Origin: Spirochaetia bacterium
GTDB taxonomy: Bacteria > Spirochaetota > Spirochaetia > CADAEX01
Direction: 5' to 3'
DNA: 64,000 nt
NCBI GenBank assembly: GCA_963662265.2
Contig: CAXXHA010000036.1
Span: forward strand, 128,001 to 192,000
The notes under the pieces: model-generated
Told to the model about the DNA's origin: nothing
Databases searched by the model: none
Seen by the model: the letters and a program-made list of their open reading frames with translations, nothing else
Made by a program: the position numbers and the translations under genes
Part shown: piece by piece, positions 4,105 to 23,800 of the stretch
Layout of the letters: each line of letters opens with the position of its first letter
How positions within the stretch are numbered: position 1 is the stretch's first letter

Positions 4105-5135
4105 GCGATTTAACAGATATACGAAAAACCCTTTTATCAAAAGATAAGGAATGGTGGAAAGAACAGCTGATCAATAATGCAATTTATATTGTCATATTTG
4201 CAATTATTGTATTTATAATTATAAGGGAACCTGCATTTGTTTCATTTGCAGTATTCAAAAATATTCTTACACAGTCATCTGTAAGGCTTATACTTGCATT
4301 CGGTGTTGCGGGAATTATTATACTGCAGGGAACAGACCTTTCGCTCGGGCGAATGGTAGGCTTTGCTGCAGTAGTTTCAGGATCTCTTCTTCAGAGAGTG
4401 GATTATGCAAACCGGTTCTACCCTGATATGGATCCTCTCCCGATATTTCTTCCCATGCTTGCAGCAATATTAATCTGCTCATTCTTCAGTGCGATAAACG
4501 GTTTTGTTGTCGCAAAATATAAAATACACCCTTTTCTTGCAACAATGGGTATGATGATAACCCTTTATGGTATTCTTTCAATCTATTTTGCATCCGGGGC
4601 TCCCGGTCCCCAGCCTATCGGCGGATTCGATGAGAGATATACACAGTTTGTAATCGGATCAACATTCGGTATTCCAAATCTTGTTTTAATAGCCGGCATC
4701 ATAAGTATACTGGTCTGGATTCTGTGGAACAAGACGACATTTGGAAAGAACATGTATGCAGTAGGGGGTAATCCTGAGGCTGCAAAAGTATCAGGTGTAA
4801 ATGTAATGAAGACATTTCTCCTTGTTTATATTCTTGCAGGTGTTCTCTACGGTGTCGGCGGATTTCTGGAAGCAGCACGAATAGGGAGCGCAAACAACGG
4901 TACAGGGTTCGGATATGAGCTTGATGCAATTGCGGCCTGCGTAGTAGGGGGAATTTCATTCAGCGGAGGTATCGGCAAGGTATCAGGCGCTATTGTCGGC
5001 GTACTCATGTTTACAATTATCAGTTATGGCATGACATTCATGGGGCTTGATATGTACTACCAGTACATAATTAAAGGGATAATTATTGTAGCTGCGGTAT
5101 CTCTTGATACAAAGAAATACCTCAAGAAATCATAG
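4101..5135 (+). CDS. mglC: Galactose ABC transporter permease
   Basis: [39 protein letters not shown] motifs; ATGA overlap with mglA. Confidence 0.92.
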
Positions 5136-5317
5136 TAAAATCTATATAAACGATTTTGCTATTTGGGCGCATATATAAAACCTGAAGAATGAAGGTTTTC
5201 ATGCGATTATAACAGAATTTATATAAATAATTCCGGAATTCGGGAGTATATTTTAAGAAATCTAAGCATTGCAAAGATTTATTATACTCCCCAATCCCAC
5301 CTTTTCATAATGTCTCC

Positions 5318-5357
5318 AGGCTGTCCGGCAGAAAATCCCCTTTTTTCCGGACAGCCT
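5318..5357. terminator. Probable bidirectional terminator between convergent mglC and uxs
   Basis: AGGCTGTCCGG...CCGGACAGCCT 11-bp inverted repeat. Confidence 0.6.
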
Positions 5358-5363
5358 CTTTAA

Positions 5364-6311
5364 TTAAGAATGATTTTTAAAATACCCAATTGTTTTTCTT
5401 AATCCTTCTTCCAGACTTACTTTTACTTTCCAGTTGATTTCTTTTTCTGCCAGATCAGTAACAGGACACCGCCTTTTGGGATCATCCTGAGGCAGGGGCA
5501 TAAATGTTATTTCTGATTTGCTTCCGGTTATTCTAATTACTATTTCAGAAAGCTCTTTTATTGTAACCTGATCCGGGTTTCCTATATTTACAGGACCCGT
5601 GAAATTATCCCGAGTCTCCATTAAGCTAATCATTCCAACTATTAAATCATCCACATAGCAGAAACTCCTGCTCTGGCTCCCATCGCCGTAAATTGTGATA
5701 TTTTTATTTTTAAGAGCCTGCATTATAAAATTACTTACAACACGGCCGTCATCAGGGCGCATTTTTGGGCCATAAGTGTTGAATATTCTCATTACTTTGA
5801 TTTTTACATTATCCTGTCTGAAGTAGTCAAAGAACAATGTCTCTGCGCATCTTTTACCTTCATCGTAACAGGCCCTTATTCCTATTGGATTTACAGATCC
5901 TTTATAATTTTCAGGCTGAGGATGTATTTCAGGATCTCCATATATTTCCGAAGTTGATGCCTGGAGGATTTTTGAATTTGTTTTTTTTGCAAGTTCAAGC
6001 ATGTTAACGGAACCTATTACAGATGTTTTTGTTGTCTGTACCGGATCATATTGATAATGTACCGGAGAAGCGGGACAAGCCAGATTATATATTTCATCAA
6101 TTTCCATATTCAGGGGCTCTGTAATATCATGTTGGAGTAATTCAAAATTAGGATGTTCCAGCAGAGCCTGAATATTTTTTTTATTGCCTGTTGAAAAATT
6201 ATCAACACATATTACATTGTGCCCATTATCTACAAGTTTTCTGCAAAGGTTGCTCCCTAAAAAGCCTGCACCGCCTGTGACCAGTATTTTCTTTTTCATT
6301 AAATTTCTCAT
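5364..6311 (-). CDS. UDP-glucuronate decarboxylase (UDP-xylose synthase-like SDR)
   Basis: [57 protein letters not shown] are UXS-family motifs. Confidence 0.9.
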
Positions 6312-6424
6312 TCTGTAAATTAAATATTGAATTTAATTTTATCATAAAAACAGCTGGAATTATTATTTTTCTAAATATTCAGTAATTCCTGTTTACCAGG
6401 GTAGAATAAGTCGATAATTAACAG

Positions 6425-7591
6425 ATGAAACAAAAAAAGCTGAAAAACAATATAAATATTTTTTCATTTCTAATAATCATGTCTTTCATTTTTGCTGTAT
6501 TATTGCCGGCATCTGTATCTGCAAAGGAATATTTTCTCGAAGACTGGCAGTGCTATGTAGATATGCCGCAGGGACTTGATCCGCTTGGAATGACAAAAAC
6601 AAAAGCAACATTCGGAAACAGCAAGGAAAATGTCTTTTTCCAGGTAAAGGTCTATCCTGCAGACAAGTACAGTACTGCGGATGATATATTCAGGGATATC
6701 AAAAATCAGCTGAGAGCGGAAGGGGATGGATATACGTTCAAGTACAACGGAAATGATTCAGTTTTTGCTGATATAAGTTTCAGTACAGATCTTGCATCTT
6801 ACAGGGCATACAGTGTTTTTATAAACAGCGGCAAATATGATATAGCTGTGCTTTCATTCTGCGAAAAAGAGATTTATGATGATGCCCATTTTTATATACT
6901 ATCTGCGCTTGATTCATTTTCAGATTCATATTCTGCCCTTTATTCACCGGGACCTGTAAGCAGCTTTTTTGAGCAGACCGGGAAAAAATCACCGCTTCTG
7001 GAGATTGCAGTGCCGGTTGGTAATGCAAAGTTTGTATTTGAAGCAGACGGCAGATCGGTAGAGGCTGCCGAGATAACAGCCGAGCGGGAAGCGCGGGTCC
7101 TTGCATTATTTAAACCGGAAGATACTGATGCGTGGAGCCGGTTTTACAGGATGATATACCGGGATAACTACAAGAGGATAGATGCCCTTTTTTATACTTT
7201 AAGAGATAATCTGCTCCGTGGGACTAAAGACCCTGAGGAAATATCAAAAAAGCTTCTTTCATGGCTTCAGAAATTTTCATATTCAAGAACAGGTACTATT
7301 GCGGATTTTTCCCCTCCATTGACAGCGCTTAAGGACTATTCTGCCGACTGTGATTCGCTCGGGATTTTATATATTATTCTTCTCAAAAAGCTCGGGATAG
7401 ATGCTATTCTGATGGTCTCGTCCGAGTATTCCCACTCAATGGCTGCCGTGGATGTTGGGGGTAATGGCGCCCGGTTTCCGTATAAGGGGAAGAAATATCT
7501 TGTGGCGGAGCTCACAAAGGATGTAGCTCTTGGACAGATAAATGCGAAGATGGCTGACCCTGCAAAATGGCTGGGGATTGAGTTTAAGTAG
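6425..7591 (+). CDS. Secreted protein with C-terminal transglutaminase-like (Cys-His) domain
   Basis: Signal peptide; C-terminal ADCDSLGILY...SHSMAAV...YLVAELT pattern of transglutaminase-like cysteine proteinases. Confidence 0.6.
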   Translation: MKQKKLKNNINIFSFLIIMSFIFAVLLPASVSAKEYFLEDWQCYVDMPQGLDPLGMTKTKATFGNSKENVFFQVKVYPADKYSTADDIFRDIKNQLRAEGDGYTFKYNGNDSVFADISFSTDLASYRAYSVFINSGKYDIAVLSFCEKEIYDDAHFYILSALDSFSDSYSALYSPGPVSSFFEQTGKKSPLLEIAVPVGNAKFVFEADGRSVEAAEITAEREARVLALFKPEDTDAWSRFYRMIYRDNYKRIDALFYTLRDNLLRGTKDPEEISKKLLSWLQKFSYSRTGTIADFSPPLTALKDYSADCDSLGILYIILLKKLGIDAILMVSSEYSHSMAAVDVGGNGARFPYKGKKYLVAELTKDVALGQINAKMADPAKWLGIEFK

Positions 7592-9379
7592 GGGGTATAA
7601 ATCCCCGGCCTTCCATGTTAAGCTGTCTTGCTGCTTCCCATATTTCCGGCCACCAGAAAAGCATTTCCCCGCATTTTTTGATATAATGCTGAAATAAAGT
7701 AAGAGCTTTTTTTTTGTTTTCCATTTTCCTGAGTTCAGCGGGGATTACTGATAGATCCGATAAAGCTTCCTGGATTAATAATTCTTTATAATTAAGCATA
7801 TCTTTTATCCACCATTCAGGACTTCGCTCGTGAAAATCAAACAGATAATTTATATGTGTTATTAGACTTTTTATATATCCTAACTGAATCAGCTTTAGTT
7901 GTTCTTCAAAATCTGAAATATTAAGATTTCCGAATTCCTGAAACCTCTTACCTGTTTCTTTCAAACGGTTTTCACCTGGAGGATTCAAAAACTCTGATGT
8001 CATTTTTCTGATCAAAAGTGATGAATAAACTCCTGTATCTAATGAAACATCTTTGAAAGAGCTTTCAGAAAAAGAGAGTTTTTCTGCCGGATTATGAAAA
8101 AGGGCATAGGGAATATGCATAGTCAATCCGTATTCAAAGCATCTGTTGAGAAGTATTCCAAAATTCGTATCTTCTCTTCTTCCAAGAGGCAGACATGGAG
8201 GAGGAATTCTTCTGTTATCAGTTGAATATGTTCCTCCCATGAGGAAATCCCCTCTGTCCATTATATAATCCATTGTTGAATTAATATTAAATCCGTCTTT
8301 TTTGATGTTATTGTAATCATTAATATTATCAAAGAAAATTCTTTCTTCCTCCTGTAAAAGAGGCAGATAAGGATTTTGATACCATCTTCCGCCGCAATAA
8401 CCTGCAGAGATTGTCTGAATAATAAGATTATTTTTCTCAATTAACATTGCTGTGTTTGAGGGAATATTATATAATGAAATATCATTTGGATTAATACTTG
8501 ATATGCTTTCCCTGTTATTCTTTTAAATTCATCTATCATATTATAATTACTTTTAATTTTTAATTTATCAGATAGCAGTGTAATTTCCGGAGTAAATAAA
8601 GGTTTTGATTGATATTGTTCAGTTAGTATAAACTGAAATTTACTTTTTTCTTTTTTGGAATAGAATATATATTCAATATCATCATCGCTTGAATAGATTC
8701 TATATCCTGCAGTTGCAAGAAGAAGAGCATTTCTGTTGCTGCCTGTTGATTTGGCATTAAATAATTTCCCGTTTGTTGACATTAAAAAATCTGTGAGTTC
8801 TTTTATTTTATTATTACCAAGCCTTTTTATTATCTCTTGAGACAGATTTTTCTTTTTCCCCATATCAAAATGCAATATTCTACCGGGATAATCTATGCTT
8901 CTGTCTTTTATTATTTTTGTTGTTAAATTTAATTCTTTACTGGAATCTGTATCATCACATATTATAATCGGTATTTTGTCAGCATAATAATGGGGAGAGT
9001 GTATACGGCAATCAAGCCATCTTTTAATCATGTTTGGGCGATTATAAGTAACACAACAGGAAATGAGATCATTGTTTTGATGATATGAAGTATTATTTGA
9101 ACTACCTTTTATTAAGTTATTCTCTTTTCTTAAAAAACCGAATTTTATCCATTTATTTAATATTTCTCCTAATAATGAAGAGGATATTCCGGAGAGTTCT
9201 GATTCTTTTAAAATTTCTCCATGCTGTAATAATGTTTTACATCCGGAAAGTGACATTAAGAGTTCTGCTTCAAAAGCACTTATTATATGAGTAGTATCAT
9301 CATTTAAATTTTCAGCAAAGAATCTGTTTTTACCGGCTTTGATAAAATTGAAATATGCTGAGTAATATTTTTGTTCCAA
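7584..9379 (-). CDS. RRE-like + GT-A/GT2 glycosyltransferase, paralog type B, unit 3 (frameshift near 8450-8500)
   Basis: ORFs 8441-9379 and 7584-8447 align end to end with intact paralog 12895-14706; motifs VTYNRP, IIICDDT, GSNRN, YSSDDD, GRREDTNF, CGEMLFWWPEIW. Confidence 0.75.
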
Positions 9380-9383
9380 TATT

Positions 9384-11163
9384 TTATTTTCTCCCGGATG
9401 TATTTATTTCTAATGCAGCTTTCCATATAGCTGGCCAGTTTTTTTATTAATGATCCGTAATTACTGAAAAATAATTTATATTGTTTTATTGCTTTCTCTG
9501 TTGAGTATTTTTTTCTGAATTCTGCAGGCAGTGAATTTGTTTTAATTACAGATTGTTTTTCAAGTAATTCAATATATTCTGCAGCATCAGATGCCCAATG
9601 CCGGGGCTTGTGATTATATTGTTCAAGCAGCCTTTCAATCTGTTCAATAATTTTACATACATATTCCATCCATTTTTTATGGCAGAATGCGATGAAATCA
9701 TTATCAGAAAGATTTGAAAATGTTATTAAACTATTTCCAACTTTTTCATAATTGTTTGATACTGGAAATAGATCTCCGTAGTAAATTAAACTATCGATAA
9801 TTAGATTTGTGATAAGTCCAAAATCTGCACTTGTGTCTTGATAGGTTTCATCTGACATTTTTTTCTTATTGGAAAAATCATGAAATATTGAGAAAGGCAA
9901 ATGCCCTATCAAACTGCAGTTATCCAGACCCTGAAGTAAAGATGCCCAGATGCCATCCTGATTTCTTCCGTTTGGAGGAAAAGGAGGTACCATAACTTCC
10001 AGATTAATTCCTGTAAGTGCTGCTGCATAAAACGGAAACCTGCTGAGAAGGATATTATTAGAGTGCAATGTAGTAAAAGGATTTGCTTTCAGCATGGAAT
10101 AATCAGACTTTTTTTTATATTCTTTTTTTCTTGTTGAAGAAGAATTTAAATAAATACCATGGGGGCGGCTGAACCATTTTCCTCCATAAATACCTGTAAT
10201 AACAGTTGTAATCATGCTGCTTTCTTTTACTAAAGCAGATGTCATTTCCGGGGAAGAATCTTTATATTGTACTGATTTCCCCTTTTCAATGTGGCGATTT
10301 AAAAAATCATTGGTTTTTTCCCCAAGAATATCTGATATACTTGATATCAAATCAATTTCAACAGGTTTAAAATGTTTTTTTACTGTTTCCATATTGCTGA
10401 ATATGTTTATATCCGGAATTTTGTTTTTTGCTAATTCAATTTCACTTTTATTATCATTATGCGAAAGCGGCTCAAACAATATATCATCATCAAAACAGAT
10501 TATTTTTTTCCCTGAAAGCTTTAACAGCGAATTATTTCTGTTTCCTCCTGTTGCCGGGAGGAAGGATAGATCAGGATCTCCTGATAAAGCATACTCAATA
10601 AGTTCACTGCTTATACCCTTTTTCGATGTTTGTTTTTTTAGTAAATTTAGAAAATGATTTTTTTCTGATTTCCCGAAATAAAATGTTTTTATTTTATATT
10701 CTTGTCCAATAACTCCAGTAGTTTTTCTGTTCAATGATTGAGTATAAGCGTCCTCCGAATCATCAAAAACATTAATAGTTGAATTTTTATGTCTTGAATA
10801 AATATTTTCAGCTATACTTTTCAATGCACTTTCCAGTAATTCAGGTCTATTACAGGTTATAGCTGCCAGTTCGATATCATGATTTTGATTACCGGTATTT
10901 TTTAAATCAGGCAGCTGAATAATCAGATTATTTCCTGTAATTTCTTCCAATATTTCTTTGCCAATCCCCGTATGAAGATAATCAGATATTTCACTTTTAA
11001 ATTTTTGTATTGGTTTTAATCCTGACAGGCGGGAATATATTAAAGCACTTTCTGTTTTAATAATTGAAGTTTTTTTAGATAGAAAATTATATAAAAAATA
11101 AAAATCAGGATCTGCTGCAAAAAAAGCAGCAGATCCTGGAAGATAATAGTTTTTTTTATTCAT
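9384..11163 (-). CDS. RRE-like + GT-A/GT2 glycosyltransferase, paralog type A, unit 3
   Basis: AITCNRPELL, VFDDS, GGNRN, ICFDDD, GRNQDGIW; a frameshift in the A-run near 9440 hides the true end NWPAIWKAALEINTSGRK* (TAA 9384-9386). Confidence 0.75.
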
Positions 11164-11171
11164 AAAACAAA

Positions 11172-11976
11172 TCAGCAGTAAAATGTGTAATAGGTAAAAG
11201 ATATATCTGTTTTTGTTGCACCTGGAAGGATTTCAAATGTTTCTGATACTGCTACATCTGAGCCGGCAGAGATATATTCAGAGCTCCTTGCAAGTATTTT
11301 CATTTTTCTTCCGGGAAGCATATCAATATATTGATATGGATAAGGAGAAGGTGCTCCGAATAAATATTCTTCCATTTTTATATTAGCTGGTATACTGTAT
11401 CTGTCGAAATTTATACCTGATCCGGTTATTTCAACATAGTTATTGAAAACATATTCATCAAGAAGGAGAAAATAAACTTCTGATCCAAAACTACCTGATA
11501 GATCTACTGATAGAGAAGCATTTGCAGCCTGTTTTAACATAAGTGATACATTTGTGTTTTCTCCTTCTGCTACTGTAAACGGAAAAGATAAACCAGCTTC
11601 TTTCATATACCAATCTTCGTTTGGAGTGCTGTATTCTTCAAAATATTCTGCAAGCAATTCCAGTTCTGTTTCTGAAGGTACTCCTGTTACTGTTACAGAA
11701 CCTCCTGTATCGGTATTGCTGTATGTGAATTCAACAGGACCAGAAACAGAGATCTGTTCAGGGTAATCTGAATCATATGATATTTCTGAAGCTGTTTGAG
11801 TAGTTTTCATATCAGCTGAACTGAAAAATTTTAATTTTAAAGTTATAGTCCCCGGAGCAGATGCTTTACTTACAGGCAGATTAAATGTAATTGTACCGCT
11901 TTTTGAATTTTGTATCTTCGATGTAGCAGGAAAGAAAAAGACTTGAAATTAATAATATTAACAATAATTTTTTCAT
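11172..11976 (-). CDS. Two-domain beta-rich lipoprotein, unit 3 (one frameshift near 11905)
   Basis: ATG 11976 gives MKKLLLILLISSLFLSC lipobox; removing one A joins it to ORF 11172-11810; internal repeat AGLSFPFTVAEG / AVSETFEILPG; ends YYTFYC. Confidence 0.7.
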
Positions 11977-11995
11977 AAATGATTAACCCCTTTTA

Positions 11996-12682
11996 TTATG
12001 ATGGTGCATATGTTTCCCAGTCAACCGTAACAGTTCCGGGATCCTGAGTTGTGCTTGTATTAATAGGAGGAATATCAGGATTTGTATTATTAATCTGGGT
12101 TGATGTTTCAACAGTAAATGTTTCATTAACTGTTTCCACAGCTGTAGCAGGGGAAGCATACCCGCTTCCGGAGACAGAAGAAGAATTGCCGCCGCTAACT
12201 AATGTTTTCTGTCCGATTTTGTTTTTCTGTTGTATTTTCCCTTTTTCAACATCAATATCACCTTTAGCGCTGCCTTCAAAAACCGTGCCCCGTACTGCTG
12301 CGGTTGATACAGGTGTCATCAAAGTAAAGTCATGTCTCAGCCCTGTTGAAGTTTTTACATTAGCCTTGATTCTGCCAAGTTTGAGATTCAGCCGGGTGTT
12401 TACAGTATCGCCTGATATAACAAGCTCATCGACAGACATCCTTGTTAGCGGTTTTATGAAAATAGTTGATGACCCGCTTAAATCAAGCTCTGCAGATGAT
12501 TTGAATCCTGTAGAAATAACAGAACCCTGAGGAATTGTGTTGCCGTTTACTGCTGTAACCCAATTTCTCCCCGGTTCCTTTATTTCAACTTTTCCTTTTA
12601 CTTTTGTTATTGTTATAAGATCTGCTGAATATAGAGGAGAAGAAAAAACAATAATTAAAAGTATTAACAAGAAGTACTTCAT
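11996..12682 (-). CDS. Secreted FecR-domain protein, unit 3
   Basis: GGAGG RBS before ATG 12682; signal peptide; FecR motifs ISTGFKSSAELDL, LKLGRI, TPVSTAAVRGT; Ser/Thr/Pro linker and C-terminal GTVTVDW. Confidence 0.85.
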   Translation of the reverse strand: MKYFLLILLIIVFSSPLYSADLITITKVKGKVEIKEPGRNWVTAVNGNTIPQGSVISTGFKSSAELDLSGSSTIFIKPLTRMSVDELVISGDTVNTRLNLKLGRIKANVKTSTGLRHDFTLMTPVSTAAVRGTVFEGSAKGDIDVEKGKIQQKNKIGQKTLVSGGNSSSVSGSGYASPATAVETVNETFTVETSTQINNTNPDIPPINTSTTQDPGTVTVDWETYAPS

Positions 12683-12720
12683 TCCTGCCTCCACTTTATT
12701 AATATTAAATAAATATAATT

Positions 12721-12810
12721 ATTATACAAATTTTTAAACTGTTTCAGATATGAAAATTATATAATTGTTTTTCTTAAAATGAAATGTATAAATAATTGTT
12801 TTCTTTAAAA
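12721..12810 (-). promoter_or_regulatory. Putative promoter of unit 3: TATAAT box plus a 31-bp-period imperfect direct repeat
   Basis: TATAAT on minus strand at 12721-12726; ATAATTGTTTT(T)CTT(T)AAAA at 12761-12779 and 12792-12810. Confidence 0.4.
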
Positions 12811-12894
12811 AAACACATTTTATTTATAACATAGGAGGTAATTGCTCTAAAATCCGTTAACTATGGATGTGTTAAAATAAATTACAGTATTTTC

Positions 12895-14706
12895 TTATTT
12901 TAAATTATTCAGGTTTATTATACTCCTTCCTTCCATGTTCAACGTTTTTGCAGTTTCCCAGATTTCCGGCCACCAGTAGAGCATTTCCCCGCATCTTTTA
13001 AGATAGTTCCTGTAAATACAAAGAGCTTCCTTTTTTGTTACGAAGTTTCTGAATTCCTCAGGAATAACTGAATCTGATGAAAGGGCTTCTTTTTTCAGCA
13101 AATTGCAGTAATTTTCCATATCCTCTGCCCACCAGGAAGGTTTTTCTTCATAAAGATCAAGAAGGTAATTTATATGGTTTATTGTTCTTGTGAAATATCC
13201 AATCTGTAAAAGTTTCAGCTGTTCTTCGAAATCTGGCAGGCTGAATTTTCCAAACTCCTCTAATAATGTCCCAAGTTCTTTAATACGGGTTTTCCCGCCG
13301 GGATTGATAAACGATTTTGTCAGTTTTTCAAGGATGAGAGTTGAATATACTCCTGTCTGCAATGACACATTGTTAAAACTCTCTTTTAGAAACGGCGGTT
13401 TTTCATCCGGATTATGATACAACGCATAAGGTATATGGATTGTAAGTCCAGGTTCAAGGCAATTATGCAGTATAATTGCAAAGTTTGTATCATCACGTCT
13501 CCCCCTCGGAAAACATGGCGATAGCAGTTTTTTGTTATCAACACAAAAAGTACCGCCCATTAAATAACTGTCATTGTGAATTATATAGCTGTCAGAAGAT
13601 TTTATATTTAATCCGTTATCTCTGATTTCCCTGTATTTTTCTGAATCATGAAAATAATCTCTTTCAGGTCCCTGCTGAAACAGGGAGAGGTAAGGATTCT
13701 GAAACCATCTGCCTCCGCAGTATCCGGCGCCTATTGCTCTAACAGATAACTTGTTTTTTTCCATCTGCATTGCAGTTTCTTCTGTCAGATCTTCAAGTGA
13801 TATAAAATCCTTTTTCATGATCTCAGAATTCAATAAACTGATATTGGATTCAAAAAAAGTGAGTAGTTTGAAGTCCTTATTTTGAACAGTATTATTTTTT
13901 AATGTATTCATGTCAGGATAAAAAGTGGCATCTGAGTTGAAATCCCTGGCATACTGGTATCTGTCAGGCTGAATATTTTTTCTTGAAAAGAATCTGTATT
14001 CCATATCATCATCGCTTGAATAGAGATTGAATCCTGCAGATGCAAGTATCATTGTGTTTCTGTTGCCGCCTCTTGTATTATGCACGTATAAATCGTTGTC
14101 AACTGCAAGTGTGAAATCCACTATGTACTCAGGCAGTTTATCATTTGCAGCTTCATTTATCAGGTTTGAAAACTGCTTTTTATCATCATAGTTTATAAGT
14201 ACAATTTCTCCCGGATAATCTTTATTTCCATCGAATATAATTTTTTTGTTTTTGTCTGAAATTTTATAATCTGTTGTGTCATCGCATATTATAATAGGTG
14301 TTTTCCGGTTTCTGTATTCATCGTTACTAATTCTTGACCGGAGCCATCTGTCAAGCATACCGGGGCGGTCACAGGTTATACATCCTGATACGATTTTCTG
14401 TTTTGAAGCAAGTGTATTATTGTTGTTTTCAGGTTTGAATAAAAGATTTTCACTTCTGAGAAATTCATTGTTAATCCATTTATTAAAAATATCCATTATT
14501 ACAGATTGAGATAAGTCATGACTGTCAGTTTCCAAAACACTTTCAAGGTGTTGATTCAGTGTTTTGCATCCTGATAAATTTATTAAAATGTCTCCTTCAA
14601 ATCTGCTGATTACATGAGAAGTTTTATCATTGTTATTAATTACAAAATATGTCTCTTCTCCCGCTTTTTTGTATCCCAGAAACGCCGGATAATACTTCTC
14701 TGTCAA
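12895..14706 (-). CDS. RRE-like + GT-A/GT2 glycosyltransferase, paralog type B, unit 2 (intact, 603 aa)
   Basis: N-terminal ~85 aa 3-strand/3-helix pattern (YFVINN..TSHVIS..ILINLSGCKTL..IFNKWINNEFL); ITCDRP, IIICDDT, GGNRN, YSSDDD, GRRDDTNF; TTGA overlap with upstream type-A gene. Confidence 0.8.
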   Translation of the reverse strand: MTEKYYPAFLGYKKAGEETYFVINNNDKTSHVISRFEGDILINLSGCKTLNQHLESVLETDSHDLSQSVIMDIFNKWINNEFLRSENLLFKPENNNNTLASKQKIVSGCITCDRPGMLDRWLRSRISNDEYRNRKTPIIICDDTTDYKISDKNKKIIFDGNKDYPGEIVLINYDDKKQFSNLINEAANDKLPEYIVDFTLAVDNDLYVHNTRGGNRNTMILASAGFNLYSSDDDMEYRFFSRKNIQPDRYQYARDFNSDATFYPDMNTLKNNTVQNKDFKLLTFFESNISLLNSEIMKKDFISLEDLTEETAMQMEKNKLSVRAIGAGYCGGRWFQNPYLSLFQQGPERDYFHDSEKYREIRDNGLNIKSSDSYIIHNDSYLMGGTFCVDNKKLLSPCFPRGRRDDTNFAIILHNCLEPGLTIHIPYALYHNPDEKPPFLKESFNNVSLQTGVYSTLILEKLTKSFINPGGKTRIKELGTLLEEFGKFSLPDFEEQLKLLQIGYFTRTINHINYLLDLYEEKPSWWAEDMENYCNLLKKEALSSDSVIPEEFRNFVTKKEALCIYRNYLKRCGEMLYWWPEIWETAKTLNMEGRSIINLNNLK

Positions 14707-16503
14707 AACTGAGTTTCCTTTTTCTTGTTAAATTTTAAAGCCTTATCCCATATATCAGGCCAGTTTATCAGCAGGTTCCCGTAATCTCTGAAAAAACATT
14801 TATACTGTTTTATTGCGTCATCAAGTGAATAATTTTTTCTTAATTCTTTAGGAAGAGAGTTTTCTGGAACCAGCGACTGTTTTTCAAGGCGCATAATATA
14901 TTCTTCAGTATCCCTTGCCCAGTATTTTGGTTTTCTTTTATTTTCTGCCAGTTTTTTTTCAAGGTCCGCAATTGCATTGCCGGCATACTCGAGCCAGATT
15001 TTATGGAAAAAAAATAAAAAATCTTCATCTGATATCTGTGACAGCCAGACAAGCTGGTTTCCAAGCGCCTGATATGATATTTTATTAAGCTTCGATCCTA
15101 GATTTTTTCTCAAGTGTTCAATTGCCAGGACAGTGATTATCCCGAATCCAGCTGATGTATCAGTGTAATCTTCTTCAGTGAAAAAAGATTTATTACTCAT
15201 TTCATGATAAATTGCCAGTGGTATATGGGATACAAAGGTATTCTGGTTTAAAGCAAGCATTACTGCTATCCAGATACCATCCTGGTTCCTTCCATAGGGG
15301 GGGGTAGGGGGGGAGTATTTCACCTGAATCTATCCCCATTGCTGTTGTGATAAAAAAAGGGGCCCTGCTCAGGGTAAGATGCTCAGGCAGCATCAGGGAT
15401 ATAGGATTTTCCTTTATTTTACTGTATTCTGATTTGTTTCTGAAACCGCAGTATCTGTCCGGTTTGTTGTTGAAATAAACACCGAAAGGCCGGCTGAACC
15501 ATCTTCCGCCGTAGATTCCTAAGAATGCAGCTTTAATCGAACTGTCCCATCTTTTGAGAGAAAAGAAGGAGTCCGGTCTGAAATTGTCAGTTAATAATTC
15601 ATTATTAGATGTTACTGTTTTCTCAATAATTTCTCCGACACTTTTTCCAAGGATATTATTTATATATCGTAAAGGGTCGATTTCAGAAGATATAAGATTT
15701 TTTTTCAGCCTCTGTTGTTTTACAGAAAACATGGCTTTCAGGATCTTTGAAGTTTGATATTTCAAGATCATCTTCTAAATTACTGTGGGTAAAAAAATCG
15801 TATTTAGTATCATCATCGAAACTGATTATTTTACAGCCGGCAAGTTTTAGTAAAAGCAGTATTCCTGTTTCCCCCCCGGACCTTTGAGTATTGGATTGTC
15901 ATGAGACCCCATAACTGCAAATCTGATAATGCTTTTTATCTGTGCCTGTATTTTTCCTTCATACAGTAGCTTTAATAATTGATGTTTCTCCTTAATTCCG
16001 AAGTGTGAAATATTTAATCCGTAATTATTTTTAATATTGATACATAAAATCTTATTTTGCATCGATTATTTTCTGTGAAGATGAGTCGTCAAAAACTATT
16101 ACAGGGAGGTTTTTATAATCCGAATGTATTTTCTCTGCAATGCTGTTTAATGCTGATGAGAGAAGTTCCGGCCTGTCTGATGTGATAATTGATAATGCTG
16201 ATTCCTGTTCTGTTTCTGAAAAGTGTATTTTACTGCTTTCAAGCGGATATAACAGATTGGTTTCCAGTAATGATGAAAATATATAATCAATATCTTTATT
16301 CTCTGATCCTGTATTATATATCTTTTCAAGATCAATTATATGCTGACTGATTGTTTTTATGCCGGTCAGTTGCGAGTAATATATTGGCATCAGTTTTATC
16401 TATGAATGATGTTTTTCCTGTATTGTAATTATAGGAAATAAAACAATCAGGTCCCGTGGGAAAAAATGCCGGCAGAACCTGGTATGTATTTTTTTTTGAC
16501 CAC
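14703..16503 (-). CDS. RRE-like + GT-A/GT2 glycosyltransferase, paralog type A, unit 2 (several frameshifts)
   Basis: AGGAG RBS, GTG 16503; fragments IITSDRPELL/VFDDS (16052-16390), GPGG.RN, GIYGGRWFSRP (15202-15771), GRNQDGIW...WPDIW (14703-15323) are collinear with 9384-11163. Confidence 0.7.
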
Positions 16504-16532
16504 TTTCTCTCCTGTCTGAAAATCTGAATCTG

Positions 16533-17380
16533 TTAACTTAACCAGGAAAAGCTGGTGCTGTTAGTGTATTGGTAATATGTTACAGGCACTGAATCAGACA
16601 ATCCCGGTCTGAGCTCAAATTCATCGGTTATTCCTAAATAATCGTACTGACTAATTGTTGCACTTTTACTTACAAGTGCACGTGTTTTTCCTTCCCGGAA
16701 GAATCGTCTCTGCAGCATCAAATGTAACAGTTGCAGTATTTCCTGATACAGTTCCGGGTGTTCCTGTGGGATTGTCCAGGTTGAAAGTATAATGAGAATA
16801 GCTTGTATTTATTGATGAGATTTTATTACCGCTGAAATTTACAATTAATAACAAATGATCCGGGTCATAGAGCCTGAAATGGGAAGCTGTATAGGTTGAA
16901 TGTTTGGGGTACACTCATTCCCCCTGCATAACCTGTCGGGATAAGTGGTATTACAACTTCTGTTGAATCTATTCCATTAACTTCAAACACATCGGAAATC
17001 CCTGAGTATGAGTGGAAATAAATACTTCCCTTATCAGATCTGGTGCTGTAACGGTTCTATCAGCAGGGTCAGCGCGCTTGATACAGGAACATTCATAAGA
17101 GATAAATCGCCTGAATCGCCTGTAAACGGAATATAGGAATTAGCAAGAAGCGGTGAAGGGAAATCTTTCAGATATGTTATATCTGATGTCTTCTCGAAAT
17201 ATGAATCAATATTTCCGGAATATACAGCTACTTTTAAAAATGCCGTCAAATCCTGCCGGCGCTCCTTTTGCTGTTGTAGTTAATTTGATTGATACAGTCC
17301 CTGTTGAAGATTCCGGAGCCTGGTAACATGAAAAATGTAAGGACAGAATATACTAAAATAATTATTAAATATCTTTTCAT
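16533..17380 (-). CDS. Two-domain beta-rich lipoprotein, unit 2 (several frameshifts)
   Basis: AAGGAG RBS, ATG 17380, reconstructed lipobox ..TF(F)SC-YQAP; fragments ITYLKDFP, GISDVFEV, LPGRK, GITDEFELRPG..VPVTYYQY match the unit 1 and 3 lipoproteins. Confidence 0.65.
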
Positions 17381-17398
17381 TTTATACTCCTTTACAGG

Positions 17399-18065
17399 TT
17401 ACTGTATTTCCCAGGCAACATGTACTGTTCCTGTTGTGGGCGGCGGTGGAACAATTATTGGCGGGGATATCCTGCATCAGGCTGTGTTGATGTCTCAACA
17501 GTAAAGCTTTCTGTGACTGTTTCAACTGCAGTTGCAGGTGCAGTATACCCTGTTCCTGAAACAGACGATGATTCGCCTCCTGAAACAGTTGTTTTCTGAC
17601 CTATTTTTATTTGTAAAACTTATTCTGCCTGTAACAACTTCCAGTTTCCGTACAGATGACTCGAAGACTGTACCTCTTACAGCAGCTGTTGATACAGGTG
17701 TTTTTAATGTGAAATCATGTTTAAGCCCTGATGAAGTTTTTACATCAGCCTTTATTCTTCCCAGCTTGAGGTTCAGCTTTGTATTTACCTTGTTTCCGCT
17801 TATTGCAAGTTTGTCGACAGACATTCTGGTAAGCTGTTTTATGAAAACAGTTGATGAATCCGCTCAGGTCAAGCTCTGCATTAGATTTAAAACCTGTGGA
17901 AATGACAGATCCTTCAGGGATAATTCCCCCTTTTTCAGCTTTTACCCATGCTTTCCCGGGTTCCTTGATTTCTACTTTTCCGTTTACTGTTTTTATTGTT
18001 ATAAGATCTGCCGAATATAGAGGTGTTGCAACAATAATAACCAGTATTAAGAGTATATATTTCAT
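17399..18065 (-). CDS. Secreted FecR-domain protein, unit 2 (frameshifted)
   Basis: GGAGG RBS; N-terminus nearly identical to unit 3 (PLYSADLITI); TPVSTAAVRGT; reconstructed tail DIPPIIVPPPPTTGTVHVAWEIQ* (TAA 17399-17401). Confidence 0.8.
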
Positions 18066-18120
18066 TTATCCCTCCGTCTTAATACATCTAAAGGAAATAA
18101 TTTTATAATTGTATATCACT

Positions 18121-18136
18121 ATTATAGGACTTTTTC
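18121..18136 (-). promoter_or_regulatory. Putative -10 region of unit 2 (GAAAAAGTCCTATAAT)
   Basis: 15/16 identical to the motif upstream of unit 1 at 19850-19865; ends in consensus TATAAT. Confidence 0.55.
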
Positions 18137-18237
18137 CCTATAAATAAAAATAAAATATTAATGACTGCGTTTTAAAGCCTGATGAATCAGTTGGATGGAA
18201 TTTTACTTATTTATTATTATTGCATTTGTTTTAAGTT

Positions 18238-19069
18238 TCAGTCAACTATCGGTTGGTAATAATAGTAGTTAACCGGAACTGTTACTATAACGCCGGGCTT
18301 AACTTCAAACACATCAGATATGCCGAAATATGAGCCGGGAGTAAGGACTGGAGTGTTTACAAGATCTGATACAATTAACTGCATTTTTTTCCCTGCAACT
18401 GCAGTACTGGTAAATGTCATTGTATCGGGAGAACCGTCATTCTCGGAATTCTCATTTACCATAATTTGTTGTTGTCGGTTCACTGTTGAATGTTATATTT
18501 CCTTCAGAAGGTACATTTAAATTAATATATGAGGCCATGTCTTCAGGTGAATAAGCGCTGACAAAATCTTCTCCTGTGAATCCTGAGTGTTTATTTATCT
18601 TCAGAGTAGCTTTAGCTGTTTGTAGTATTGTGATTGAAACATGCAGAGGAGTGCTGTTTTCCAGAGTAAAAGGGTATGAAAGCCCTGCATATGCAAGGTA
18701 ATAGGGGTTATCAATACCTTCGCCGTAAAATTCAGCAAGAAGATTCAGCTCTTTTTCGGGCGGGATTCCTGAAATTAATATCTCTCCTGTATCTCCATCT
18801 ACAGGAATAGTTATTTCATCATGCCCGTTAATAGGTACTGTTTCCGGAAAATCTGAAAGATATGATATCCCGTTTACCGGATCCTGATTAACTTTGAATT
18901 CTCCTGAATTAAAGAGTCTTAAAACTAATTCTGTTTCGCCTCTGACCGGAGGTATTTTGATTACATCTGTGTCCTATTATTACTGATAATAGCCCCCTGA
19001 TTAGAAAACAGGTGCCTGGTAACAGGAAAAAAGTGAGAATATCAGCAGTAATAACAGTGTTTTTTTCAC
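18238..19069 (-). CDS. Two-domain beta-rich lipoprotein, unit 1 (several indels)
   Basis: GGAG RBS, GTG 19069, MKKTLLLLLIFSLFSC-YQAP; ISYLSDFP, GIPPEKELNLLAEF, AGLSYPFTL, GISDVFEVKPG..VPVNYYYY homologous to units 2 and 3. Confidence 0.65.
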
Positions 19070-19084
19070 TATATACTCCATATA

Positions 19085-19774
19085 TTATTCCAGCGGGGGA
19101 TCCAGTTTTCCCCAGTTGAGTATTATATAACCTGAAAAGGACGAATCCTTATGATTTGAATCCGGTAGTGAACCTGCCTCTTCCGGAATGGTTGAGATGT
19201 CTGTAGTGAAATCCTCATTGTTTGTGTCATTTTCCGGTTCAGGTGAATTATAGCCTTTGCCTTTTACTTTTGAAGAGTTACCTCCCCTTACAGAAGTACC
19301 CTGGCCGATTTTATTTATAAATTTTATTTTTCCTGTTTTAACTTCGAGGTTTCCATGTGCAGAAGCTTCAAAAACGGTCCCTTTCACAGCAGCCGTGGAA
19401 ACAGGTGTTATCAGTTTAAAGTCATGTTTCAGACCTTCAGATGTTTTTACTTCTGCCTTAATCCGTCCCAGTTTCAGGTTAAGTTTTGTGCTGACTTTTT
19501 CTTTTTTTATTTCAAGTTTATCGACTGACATCCTGGTAAGCTGCTTAATGAGGATAAGCGAAGAATTTCCGAGATCCAGTCTTGTTTCCGATCTGAATCC
19601 TGTTGAAACGATTGTCCCCTCCGGTATGTATGATCCTGAAAATGCTTTTTCCCAGTTTTTCCCAGGTTCTTTTACTTCAACTTTTCCTGTTATATCCATT
19701 ATTTTTATAAGATCAGCCGGAAAGAGAGATGAGGTTGAAATGCAAATAACAAGAAATAAGAAGAAATATTTCAT
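19085..19774 (-). CDS. Secreted FecR-domain protein, unit 1
   Basis: GGAG RBS before ATG 19774 (MKYFF); STGFRSETRLDL, LKLGRI, TPVSTAAVKGT; C-terminal SGYIILNW. Confidence 0.85.
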   Translation of the reverse strand: MKYFFLFLVICISTSSLFPADLIKIMDITGKVEVKEPGKNWEKAFSGSYIPEGTIVSTGFRSETRLDLGNSSLILIKQLTRMSVDKLEIKKEKVSTKLNLKLGRIKAEVKTSEGLKHDFKLITPVSTAAVKGTVFEASAHGNLEVKTGKIKFINKIGQGTSVRGGNSSKVKGKGYNSPEPENDTNNEDFTTDISTIPEEAGSLPDSNHKDSSFSGYIILNWGKLDPPLE

Positions 19775-19849
19775 TACTGTCTCCATGGAACAGTTTGCTA
19801 TTCTGAATTTCACTCAGCTGTTTGATCGAATTGAGATATTTATGTATAT

Positions 19850-19865
19850 ATTATAAGACTTTTTC
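19850..19865 (-). promoter_or_regulatory. Putative -10 region of unit 1 (GAAAAAGTCTTATAAT)
   Basis: Shared with 18121-18136. Confidence 0.55.
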
Positions 19866-19910
19866 AGACTTTTTGGGGCAGATATCGGTTAAAAATATGG
19901 AATAATAATT

Positions 19911-20670
19911 TTATTGTTCCATACTCTTTTCATTTTCAACTTCACTGTTATAAGAATCAATCCCGGGTGTCCAGTCTTCAACTTCATTGAATGAAAATTT
20001 TTCATTCAGCATTTTGTGAAGCCACCTTATCAGGGCTTCTGTTCTCCCGTTGAAAGCGTCTTTTAGCCGTTTCCTCATGAAGAAAAAGCTGCCGGGTGTC
20101 TGCTGTTCCCAGGCCGTAGCATTCCAGCTTTCCGTTTTTTATTTCAGCGGCAAAAAGGATAAGAAGCTTCTGCTTGGTTATGACGGGAAGTATCCACCAC
20201 CTGATATTCTCGATATTTTCAGCCTTGAAGAGAATGAAGTTTTCCTTCTTTTCTATTGTGTATCTTATCTCTGCCGGTTTGAACGGCAGTATTGTCTGAT
20301 CTGCAGTAATTATTCTTTTCCCGTTATTATCGACTATATCATCAAGAACTGAAATATCTCTGAAAAGGGGGTATGTGGAATCATGTCTTCTCGAGTAATA
20401 GGGAATATTAATGAAATTTTCAACATCTGTAAGGATATTCTCTATCTTTAAAATTGAACTACTGTTGCCGGTTTCCGGTATATCAAGTGTGAATGATGTC
20501 TGCGCCTTGAAATTGATTTTTCTTTCCATGAGCCTGTCAATTTCTTTCTGTATTTCCTTCCTGTTTCCGTTGTAGAAAATATCTTCAGAGAAGGAGACAA
20601 CTTTATCTTCCTGGGCAGAAATTCCAGAAACGCATAAAAACAAAATAAGTATTAAATATCCAGATCTCAA
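19911..20670 (-). CDS. Secreted spirochaete-type hypothetical protein (DUF6675-like); frameshift near 20095
   Basis: AAGGAG RBS before TTG 20670; signal peptide; IPYYSRRH..YPLF motif; removing one C extends the ORF to TAA 19911. Confidence 0.5.
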
Positions 20671-20848
20671 ATATAGTCTCCTTAAAACAAGTCTGATAAT
20701 TGTAAGATTATAACTGTTTAAACATTCAATATGCAAAAAAAATATATAAATATACCTGATTTTGAAGCGGCATGATTTTTTCCGGTTATATGTGGTTAGC
20801 AGAATAATAAAATTTCTGCTGTTTGGTTGATATGACCGGGGAGGATGT

Positions 20849-23800
20849 ATGAAACAGGCTGCTTTATCGTTTTTGAAAAAGTTCAATCTGTTTTTTATGC
20901 TTCTTTGCTGTTTTCCTGATGCCGTTCCGGATGATTTCAGGCCTTATTCTGACTTTAATGCTTCAGACATGAAAATCTGGTATGACAGGGCAGACCTTGA
21001 AGAGACAAGGGATATGTGGATGGCCTCTGCCAATATCGGTATGTCAGTTTTAAGCCCTGAAGAACGGGATAAATCACTTCTGGTTATGAAAGAGCGTCTT
21101 GCCTCATGGCAGTGGAACAGAATTGAAGAGAAAGTATGCAGGCCTGATATCCAATCGCTTTTATCAGAAATAGAGAACAAAAAGAAGGACTATCTTTATC
21201 TTGTTGAAGAAGGAAATCTGAAATTCGATGAGAATGGTACCCCGATCTTTAAAGGGCTTTCTGGTCTTGATAGCGATTTGACTTCATGGGAAAACGAAAT
21301 CAGGTTATTTGTTGGTGATCTTTTCAATAACTGGGAGAGATGTGCAAGGATAAAATATGATGAAATTCTATCTCTGGAGAAAAGGTATTGGAAAGGGTGA
21401 AAAAGCTGTACTTGATGCATCATTCAATGAATATAAAAACAGCATAAAGAAGGAATTTGAATACCTTTATCTTGCCGGCAGAAAGAGCCTTACAGCAATG
21501 AGGAGCAAAGACAGCTTTTCAATGAAAAAGGAGAGCGAAGATAAGGGGGCTGAAGTTGAAGCTGAAAAGAGGATCGGGGAAATACAGAAAAGCTTAAAAG
21601 AAGCATCAGATACCCTGGAGAAAAACCTCACACTCATGAAAAGCTTAAATACTGAAGAAGTGGGAGTAAGGATAAACGAGTGGGAGGATGACTTTAAGAA
21701 AAGCTTTGAAAAGGGGCTCAGAAAATGGGAGGAGGCAGAAAAAGATTTTTTGAGTGAAAGAATCAGATGGGAAGAATACGGCAGGGAAGGATATCTTAAA
21801 GCAGAGAATGAATGGGACAGGGCAATAGAGAAGTTTACCGAAGCAAGGCGATCCTGGTCTGTAGAGATGAAGGGAATAATAGATGAGGGGAGAACGTACT
21901 GGCAGAAAAGAGAAGTAAGCTTTTTTGAAAGCTACAGGGAAGTAACAGAAGGTATGGAAGAGGCTTCATTGAAGGAAAAGATGAGGTTTGAAAAAGAACT
22001 CACCGGTTACCTGTCTGTTTACAGGGAAAGCAGAAACATAGAGGGGCTGGCTAAAGAAAATATTGAGTATCTTACCGAAGAAATAGCACGGATTGAAAGA
22101 TACAAGGCTGATAAGCAGAGAACTGTAAGCAGAGTTAAAAACCGGATTGATGATATTGAAGATGATATAAATGATTATGAAAGATACATAAAAAGAGCGG
22201 TTGATGAAATTGAAAATGATGATGACAGAAGAGGATTTGATTTCAGATTTCTGTTTATAAGAATATATAGACAGAAAATAGATGATCTGAAACCGCTTCT
22301 TCCCCCTCTTTATAATCAGTATAACCTTGCAGTGGAGATAAGGGACAGGAAAAACAGTGAGCTTTCTTCATACAGGACAGAACTTGCATTCTGGGAAAAC
22401 GCATCAGTTAACTACAAAACAGCCCGAGAGGCAGCAGAAAACAGCCTTATATCACTTGAAGAACAAATCAAGAGCGGAGTCTACGGTGGAAATGAGTTTG
22501 ACAGTGAGCTTAATATATTAAAAGAAAAGAGGGATATCTTAAAAAGAAAACTTGATATAGCACAGCATGTCTATGAATACTCACTTGATAATACATCAGA
22601 CAGGAGAGAAAAGCAGATACAGAAAAGAAATACAGTAAAGCACTTTCTCTTTTCAGGGGAAAAGAGGCTGAATATGAAAAAAGTGTTACCGAACTTGATG
22701 ACTTTATTGAAAATATTCTGGGCGAAAATGAAAAAGATCTTGAAGATAAGAAAAACGAGCTTGGTCTTGCTGAAAAAAAGCTTGAAGATGCGAGGATTGA
22801 ATATGAGGCTGCAATGGAGATCTTCCGGCTTAAGGATTCTAGTTTACTCGAGACAGCAATATCAAATCTTGAAGATGAAAATGAGGATTTCTTTGATGAG
22901 GAACTTGACAGCATATGGAGCGACTACTTTCTTCATATGGAAAAGCTTCTGAGAAACGAGAGAAAGTGGAGTTGTGATGAACTTCTTTCAGATATCATGG
23001 GAACTTCAGCTGAAGATAATGCAGAAGACCTGGCTGTCTATGAAGGGCGAAGTACCTACCTTGAAGATTTAAGCCCTGCCTTCTCAAATCCCGATACAGC
23101 TGATCTGAAAAATGAGTTTGTCCTTAAAGGTTTTGATACTGAAAAAGGTCTCATCCATGAGTTTTTCTCATCCCTTGAAGCCGGAGAAGAGGAAAAAGCT
23201 CAATTTTACTTTAACCTTGTGAAGGTTCAGCATAAAGGAATCTGTGCTACTGTAAACAAGGGAATAGAACTTCTTTCCCTTGATAAGAGTGAGAAAAGCG
23301 CATCAGGTCTGGTTAAGGATATAGAGGATTCTTTAAAGGAGAAGAGAACTGAGCTTTTCGGGGATGATTATGATAGTTCTGATATCCTTTATTTCCTGAG
23401 TAATAATTCCTGTGATGATCTTTCCATAGAACCTTCCGATCCTGATGTTCTTGATAAAATAAAGGAAATTGCGTTTCTTGAAGCAGAAATGATGGGAATA
23501 AATGAATACAGCCGGTACGCTGCTGCATTTACACTTCATGAGAGAAACAACCTGTTTGAAAAACTGTCATCACTTTATTTTCTGGCAGATGACGGGGAGT
23601 CTGCTTCTGTCGGCGTAAGCGCATCTTTTGAGACAAAAGAGGATTTAACCGGTTTTTATAAAGATTTAAAAACACTCAATGTGCCTGTTTACCTTGAAGA
23701 GATAACCGGAAAAGTCCTTGAAAGTGTAATCAAGGATAAGAGTTTTATATTTGATGAGGATCTCTCTTCAATGGAAAACGAACTCAATTCCTACAACAAC

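Follow-up and report, generated by a model that had tools for sequence, protein, structure and literature searches.

A spirochaete locus encoding paired proteins that join a predicted RRE-type winged helix to a GT75-like GT-A body

Gene order and paralogues at the locus

The sequence studied here, referred to as the window, is a stretch of 64,000 nucleotides from a Spirochaetia bacterium (assembly GCA_963662265.2, contig CAXXHA010000036.1, forward-strand positions 128,001 to 192,000), in which a tandemly repeated module occupies the minus strand between approximately 5.4 and 20.9 kb. The module encodes two types of paralogous protein, A (about 595 aa) and B (about 603 aa), in which an N-terminal domain resembling a RiPP recognition element (RRE), the peptide-binding unit of pathways for peptides that are made by the ribosome and modified after translation (RiPPs), is followed by a catalytic body similar to that of glycosyltransferase family GT75. 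The two types share 23% identity over their full length and each is present in two copies, the further ones being designated A' and B'. The initial annotation had described four proteins of about 600 aa; the number of genes is correct, but only B is intact, and the range given as the home of all four (12895..16503) spans only two of them.

From high to low coordinates, the locus comprises a DUF6675 gene, FecR1-X1, FecR2-X2-A'-B, FecR3-X3-A-B', a convergent gene and an epimerase gene of the extended short-chain dehydrogenase/reductase (SDR) type, where FecR denotes an exported protein with a FecR domain and X a lipoprotein (Table 1). The FecR and lipoprotein genes encode hydrophobic N-termini. 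In contrast, neither A nor B has a signal peptide or a transmembrane segment, the maximum 19-residue hydropathy being 1.24 for A and 0.97 for B, which agrees with the earlier description of the enzymes. In the source genome (3.77 Mb, 41 contigs, 90.6% complete) the enzyme family is confined to this locus.

Table 1. Genes and motifs of the locus, in positions of the window (aa, amino acids; ORF, open reading frame)
Feature	Position	Strand	Description
Paralogue B	12895..14706	-	603 aa, sole intact copy: RRE-like domain, GT75-like GT-A enzyme and helical C-domain
B, residues 1-95	14422..14706	-	Predicted RRE/PqqD-type winged helix, three main strands then three helices
B, residues ~100-590	12937..14409	-	GT-A core with inserted core region and C-terminal helices, GT75-like
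B, DDD motif (D232-D234)	14005..14013	-	Candidate metal/diphosphate site, by analogy with the DXD motif in the available part of the MtdL report (PMC9937993)
B, H431	13414..13416	-	Candidate second metal ligand; end of strand 421-431, probably as His287 in MtdL (same source)
Paralogue A'	14703..~16503	-	Type A copy in at least four frames
Paralogue A	9304..11163	-	619-aa ORF
Paralogue B'	7584..9379	-	Two ORFs, 312 and 287 aa
FecR-domain exported protein, copy 3	11996..12694	-	232 aa; Pfam FecR E 8.2e-10; hydrophobic N-terminus
Protein X, copy 3	11172..11912	-	212-aa ORF; same-frame homology to the lipoprotein of relatives extends to 11912
Protein X, copy 2	16533..17349	-	At least five frame pieces
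FecR-domain protein, copy 2	17464..18065	-	Three frame pieces
Protein X, copy 1	18238..19081	-	Frameshifted; lipobox-bearing start at ~19001-19081
FecR-domain exported protein, copy 1	19085..19813	-	242 aa; Pfam FecR E 4.2e-8
DUF6675 protein, head of locus	20002..20886	-	Pfam DUF6675 E 2.8e-24
NAD-dependent sugar-nucleotide epimerase/dehydratase (extended SDR)	5364..6311	-	Pfam Epimerase E 3.1e-50
Exported transglutaminase-like protein	6425..7591	+	Weak transglutaminase-core match E 4.9e-4; conserved Cys and His

Fold of the N-terminal domain and of the catalytic body

AlphaFold2 modelled B with a predicted local distance difference test score (pLDDT) of 90.5 and a predicted template modelling score of 0.89, and residues 1-95 alone with a pLDDT of 86.5. 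DSSP assignment on the models placed strands at residues 10-16, 19-24 and 29-34 and helices at 35-42, 50-60 and 67-79, with short extra strands at 5-7 and 83-85. An LSG-x-K/R-T turn is common to A and B, and the domain is retained in 118 of 119 diverse family members. When its model was compared all-against-all with 48,161 chains, proteins of RiPP pathways ranked first, and most of the matches were leader-peptide binders. The highest Z-score was obtained with TigE (10.2; 90 residues aligned, root mean square deviation 3.1), followed by MibB (9.2), TbtB (9.0), MccB (8.8), TbiB1 with its leader peptide (7.7), the RRE of PbtF (7.3), ThcOx (7.3), McbB (7.1), MadB (7.1), NisB with leader (6.9), lasso B1 (6.6), CteB (6.4), LynD (5.7) and PqqD (5.6). 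On this ranking, the predicted fold of the domain is of the RRE type. The initial annotation had proposed from the letters alone that about 85 residues form three short strands, three helices and an LSG turn, folded as a PqqD-type winged helix, and the models bear out both points.

The remainder of the protein is a GT-A domain with an inserted core region and a C-terminal helical domain, and its nearest structural relatives belong to GT75. In an alignment of 19 sequences, T111-x-D/N-R114-P, D142-D143-T/S, G213-x-N215-R216-N217 and D232-D233-D234 were invariant or at least 90% conserved, together with H431 (invariant), D406 and W526; these include all the motifs first quoted for the proteins, and the GT-A core then suspected behind the N-terminal domain is likewise recovered by the fold matches. 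Among 119 diverse members, conservation was 96-100% for DDD232-234, N217 and G331, 99% for H431, 93% for D406 and 89% for R403. The available part of the report on MtdL, a GT75 enzyme, assigns to it a GT-A domain, a novel core and a helical domain at the C-terminus, with Mn2+ held by a DXD motif (D109-111) and His287, R257 and D260 at the sugar, and R159 as the counterpart of the self-glycosylated arginine of OsUAM1 (R158) (PMC9937993). The spacing of R403-x-x-D406 equals that of R257-x-x-D260, and the pair lies 25-28 residues before the conserved His compared with 27-30 in MtdL; DDD232-234 and H431 also lie at the places in the secondary structure where they would be expected. This residue mapping is based on sequence and secondary structure, without superposition.

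It must be noted that the likeness to GT75 is structural. By sequence, the body could be linked neither to GT75 nor to a PDB chain, nor to a Pfam or NCBIfam model: PDB searches with B, with the 19-sequence profile and with a 119-sequence profile returned no relevant chain, and Pfam RGP (PF03214) matched neither the window proteins nor 58 family representatives. A weak cluster of language-model look-alikes (score 0.83) carries PF03214 in 51% of its members. The glycosyltransferase family 2 model PF00535 scored 15.3 bits against A, under its cut-off of 23.3, and gave no match to B; 22 of the 58 representatives matched it at E ≤ 0.05, weakly and on the first strand-helix-strand, and two exceeded the cut-off. 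Compared with MtdL and the plant UAM/RGP proteins, with which it shares the GT-A, core and C-terminal helical layout, the family is about 230 residues longer, owing to the N-terminal domain and insertions, and its members are found both as pairs of neighbouring paralogues and built in line into nonribosomal peptide synthetases (NRPS) and polyketide synthases (PKS).

Given these relatives, A and B could be pyranose-furanose mutases of the GT75 type that make an unusual sugar for surface glycans, with a regulatory or structural N-terminal domain. We regard this as improbable. In the 119 sequences no arginine between the DDD motif and residue 400 reaches 70% conservation (the best, R349, stands at 67%), and hence no clearly conserved counterpart of the self-glycosylated arginine is apparent as far as alignment by sequence can tell. 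In addition, neither RGP nor a PDB chain was matched even with the 119-sequence profile, and a mutase has no evident need for an RRE domain kept in 118 of 119 members, nor for being inserted behind carrier domains. The GT2 enzymes SunS and ThuS, which glycosylate peptides, matched the body much more weakly than GT75 did; they read their peptide by a C-terminal helical domain and not by an N-terminal RRE.

Family distribution, operon neighbours and candidate acceptors

A word-indexed search retrieved only 14 relatives of B and three of A; a profile search of 1.84 billion representatives gave 3623 at E ≤ 1e-3 and 1640 at E ≤ 1e-30. The family, for which there is no Pfam or NCBIfam model, was found in six of the 20 genomes of the taxonomic family to which the window belongs, its own genome counted, and in seven of 401 genomes that sample the phylum evenly. 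Scanning one genome per species yielded 43 loci from Acidobacteriota, cyanobacteria, Actinomycetota, Chloroflexota, Planctomycetota, Myxococcota, Elusimicrobiota, Spirochaetota and others. It is thus an unannotated, widespread family with an RRE-type domain and a GT75-like body, of which the FecR/lipoprotein operon is a lineage-specific setting. In a FastTree phylogeny of 60 rows, the A clade (support 100) and the B clade (support 99) were sisters, and other lineages had local duplicates of their own, which suggests that the enzymes work as pairs.

The genomic contexts were assessed by scanning 197 neighbouring or fused proteins of the loci against Pfam; in high-GC loci, genes were called crudely as longest ORFs and the neighbours are therefore less certain. 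RiPP-like neighbours were few, namely a gene for a lantibiotic-dehydratase N-domain directly upstream (locus L045) and a radical-SAM/SPASM gene with a MacB-type exporter nearby (L041). Four Actinomycetota loci (L043, L046, L048 and L064) combine a family gene of 590-917 aa with Sulfotransfer_4, redoxin and ABC-2 transporter genes, which looks like a separate conserved setting, and the Acidobacteriia loci have a DUF3738 protein upstream. The 150 best representatives included six long fusions: four with PP-binding, with or without AMP-binding and KR, one with an N-terminal Peptidase_C39 and one with a C-terminal FkbM methyltransferase. The Peptidase_C39-fused representative (P0153) had no relative among the metagenome contigs scanned.

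Among spirochaetes, the order FecR, X, A, B is kept in three related genomes: G011, which has two modules with a FecR fragment between them, G014 and G010. A and B were adjacent wherever both were found. In G014 the gaps within the operon are 19, 11 and 2 nt, and the epimerase gene follows B after 54 nt. The DUF6675 gene likewise lies upstream in G011 and G010, and its cluster was found in loci L020 and L022. The FecR protein (39% identity) and two more genes of the cassette also occur in loci that bear the title 'uncultured Spirochaetota'. A cassette recurs in spirochaetes that encodes, besides a FecR-domain protein and a lipoprotein, an exported protein of 150-163 aa and one of 442-446 aa that belongs to no Pfam family (L021 4166-7197; L052 1685-5400 and 11088-13547; L058 4303-7343), near a CHASE2 adenylate/guanylate cyclase in L021 and L058, with enzyme genes present or absent.

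Protein X is classed as a lipoprotein on account of a hydrophobic leader ending in S-C-Y, which is seen in relatives; in copy 3 of the window, the segment with the lipobox was not recovered. Near the C-terminus of X runs an invariant T/S-Y-Y strand, and the variable tail, in which S, T, Y and C are abundant, often has Cys as its last residue; only 15 homologues were found, largely on contigs shared with A and B. The lipoproteins upstream of the enzymes (L012, L066, L069, L070, L065, L071 and the X family) have an aromatic-rich C-terminal strand, for example T-Y-Y, F-x-F-Y or Y-S-F-S, and then a short variable tail, which in the X family often holds two cysteines, the last at the very end. Across the phylum, 10 of 14 informative genomes have a lipobox-bearing gene, recognised by eye, immediately upstream of the family gene; two others (G168 and G381) are cut by the end of the locus. 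The lipoproteins are of several types: the C-terminal parts differ between the X, NHL-like (L052, L058) and collagen-repeat (L065, G397) types, further types measure 246 aa (G330) and 301 aa (G015), and in at least seven of the lipoprotein-bearing genomes a FecR gene precedes them.

The initial annotation had noted the lack of a small precursor ORF, and this proved correct over a wider sample. Among 293 small ORFs from 11 spirochaete sources, four clusters were common to two sources and none was precursor-like, consisting of fragments of lipoprotein starts and of unrelated flanking ORFs. In this regard, the RRE fold, together with the Peptidase_C39, LanB-N and rSAM/SPASM associations seen elsewhere in the family, would suit genuine RiPP tailoring enzymes served by a small precursor that is encoded at some other site of the genome or escaped detection. 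Precursors of RiPPs normally adjoin their enzymes, and here neither the modules of the 11 sources nor their surroundings hold a conserved small ORF and the tight G014 operon has no room for one, so that we consider a distant precursor very unlikely.

We tentatively favour, at somewhat short of an even chance, the reading that A and B form a pair of glycosyltransferases that act on a polypeptide, the lipoprotein X encoded upstream being the first and the FecR-domain protein the second candidate acceptor, because the RRE-type domain is kept, the catalytic site looks intact in both paralogues and a lipoprotein of varying type stays upstream. As judged by synteny only, X is the most likely acceptor. 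The two proteins would act as paired cytoplasmic enzymes, using a nucleotide sugar and a metal bound by the DDD motif and the conserved His of the GT75-type body, with the conserved R-x-x-D nearby. The winged helix would recruit the polypeptide, presumably by adding a substrate strand to its own β-sheet, and the body would then transfer the sugar to it; the adjacent SDR epimerase/dehydratase, a possible supplier of the donor sugar, may shape that sugar. What the analysis shows is the two folds, the motifs and a conserved operon; metal and donor use, peptide binding, the acceptor and cooperation between A and B are inferred. A more specific proposal, which we hold to be rather unlikely in its entirety, is that the RRE domains read a segment of the co-encoded lipoprotein or FecR protein, for example the aromatic-rich C-terminal strand and tail of the lipoprotein, that the GT75-derived body glycosylates this protein in the cytoplasm before Sec/Lol export, and that the whole would be a variable, duplicating cassette for glycosylated surface lipoproteins in spirochaetes. 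Recognition in the manner of RiPP pathways would then extend to large exported proteins, as the initial annotation had suggested.

Several observations weigh against a polypeptide acceptor of this kind. X and FecR leave the cytoplasm, in which A and B reside, so they would have to be modified before export. In two of the 14 genomes of the phylum (G366 and G369) the enzyme gene has no lipoprotein gene beside it, and pairs of FecR and lipoprotein genes are also found where the enzymes are absent (L021 6016-7197). The assignment of the N-terminal domain has its own weak points, as the fold also matches winged-helix DNA binders, at lower Z. The PqqD/RRE hit that the initial annotation had expected was obtained in part: Foldseek listed the same RiPP proteins, but at E-values from 1.3e-2 to about 1, none below 1e-3, and Pfam PqqD (PF05402) did not match this domain in the window proteins; in 58 family representatives its one sub-threshold match covered residues 557-585 and none was N-terminal. 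Language-model look-alikes of the domain were MftB and PqqD-family chaperones, with scores of only 0.78-0.79, and serve as a lead only. As to the body, GT75 is so far known for nucleotide-sugar mutases that, according to the available part of the MtdL report, glycosylate an arginine of their own and not external acceptors (PMC9937993).

To this is added the occurrence of the unit in NRPS/PKS lines. In nine of the 43 loci (L026, L027, L028, L031, L032, L035, L036, L037 and L039; match at ~8001-9800 in most), the RRE-like plus GT75-like unit forms the C-terminal part of a 1256-1993-aa protein and stands directly behind a PP-binding domain, in the order N-part of about 600 aa, carrier domain, RRE-like domain and GT75-like body, mostly with a condensation-adenylation-thiolation(-thioesterase) module next. 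The hosts are cyanobacteria, Chloroflexia, Cloacimonetes, Poribacteria and Byssovorax, and the sources of one of these proteins call it FkbH-like / HAD-IIIC. Such an arrangement would be an in-line domain of sugar-enzyme type in NRPS lines, of which our literature search found no description. There, the N-terminal domain can serve where the substrate is presumably carrier-bound; therefore, it is not strictly a reader of RiPP leaders and may be a more general handle for proteins or peptides.

Such fusions lead to an alternative that is unlikely but has to be taken seriously, in which the domain is a general docking handle for a carrier protein or partner enzyme, the enzyme glycosylates a lipid, a small molecule or else an acyl or glyceryl unit tethered to a carrier, and FecR and the lipoprotein are mere neighbours in a surface or signalling locus. 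However, the spirochaete modules contain no carrier-protein, NRPS or PKS gene, the lipoprotein neighbour is kept across differing lipoprotein types, and most structural matches of the domain bind leader peptides.

Soluble cytoplasmic glycosyltransferases that modify co-encoded full-size proteins before export are known (HMW1C/NGT, TibC/AAH and EarP), and A and B resemble them in concept only: these enzymes have other folds and are not known to carry an RRE, and none was among the listed fold matches. The RRE-bearing RiPP enzymes TigE, MibB/NisB, TbtB, MccB, LynD, lasso B1 and PqqD carry the same N-terminal winged helix on a tailoring enzyme, whereas A and B have a different fused enzyme class, full-size exported neighbours, no adjacent short precursor and no Pfam PqqD match. 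Fusions of an RRE with a glycosyltransferase have been flagged as an architecture absent from known RiPP classes (PMC7470986, 2020; PMC12710340, 2025); the available parts of these reports describe them by PF00535 annotation and report no function. The window proteins fall below the cut-off of that model, and the supplements of both papers may list the enzyme family. In the literature searched, no available text linked GT75 with RiPPs or described this family, which supplements of genome-mining studies may nevertheless list.

Two well-studied modules, a RiPP-type recognition domain and a GT75-type body, are thus joined in an unreported way. The unit occurs in three settings, with exported lipoproteins, with RiPP-type enzymes and in line behind NRPS/PKS carrier domains, which makes it testable what an RRE-like domain reads outside classical RiPP pathways. 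If the lipoprotein were the acceptor, spirochaetes would have a new way of glycosylating surface proteins; if the proteins were mutases or small-molecule transferases instead, they would be ordinary, though unannotated, sugar enzymes.

Frame changes and further features of the locus

Three of the four enzyme genes carry frame changes. Up to residue 585, A shares 98% identity with a relative of 592 aa; the frame of A then changes near 9409, about 7 residues before its end. B' has one frame change near 8504-8510; assemblies of close relatives carry A as 592 aa and B' as an intact protein of 598 aa. A' has no in-frame ATG at its start and at least three frame changes (tblastn frames -3/-1/-2/-3), one of which, at ~15285-15325 (-), coincides with C7 and C8 runs that code for a conserved P-P-x-P-P motif; an A8 run lies at ~15705. 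The C7/C8 tract could be an assembly error or a tract prone to slippage.

Next to the locus, four overlapping ORFs of 183, 531, 839 and 1369 aa occupy 20849-29378 (+), of which the two largest have no Pfam family. They match one continuous reading frame of about 2700-2850 aa that G010, G014 and, in two copies, G011 possess, and which is interrupted here by at least three frame changes. Because this giant gene, whole in relatives, is also broken here, frameshifts are taken as widespread in this assembly and probably in part as errors of it, and phase variation at the C7/C8 run was not adopted as an explanation for the same reason. The middle module (FecR2, X2 and A') has at least nine frame changes in about 4.6 kb, denser than elsewhere, and may be truly decayed.

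The transglutaminase-like gene is convergent with the module and has a homologue of 76% identity in G011. It was set aside as a candidate leader peptidase, given its signal peptide and the presence of a homologue only in G011 among three relatives; the gene at this position in G010 (L022) is non-homologous. A scan of positions 5000-21000 for promoters and terminators showed no excess over shuffled sequences (62 versus a mean of 61.5, and 13 versus 10.6, respectively). Finally, a perfect 13-bp inverted repeat with a 7-nt loop is located at 11106-11138 (-), within the start of gene A, where it codes for the conserved P-G-S-A-A-F-F-A-A-D-P; it may have arisen incidentally from a palindromic choice of codons for AAFFAA.

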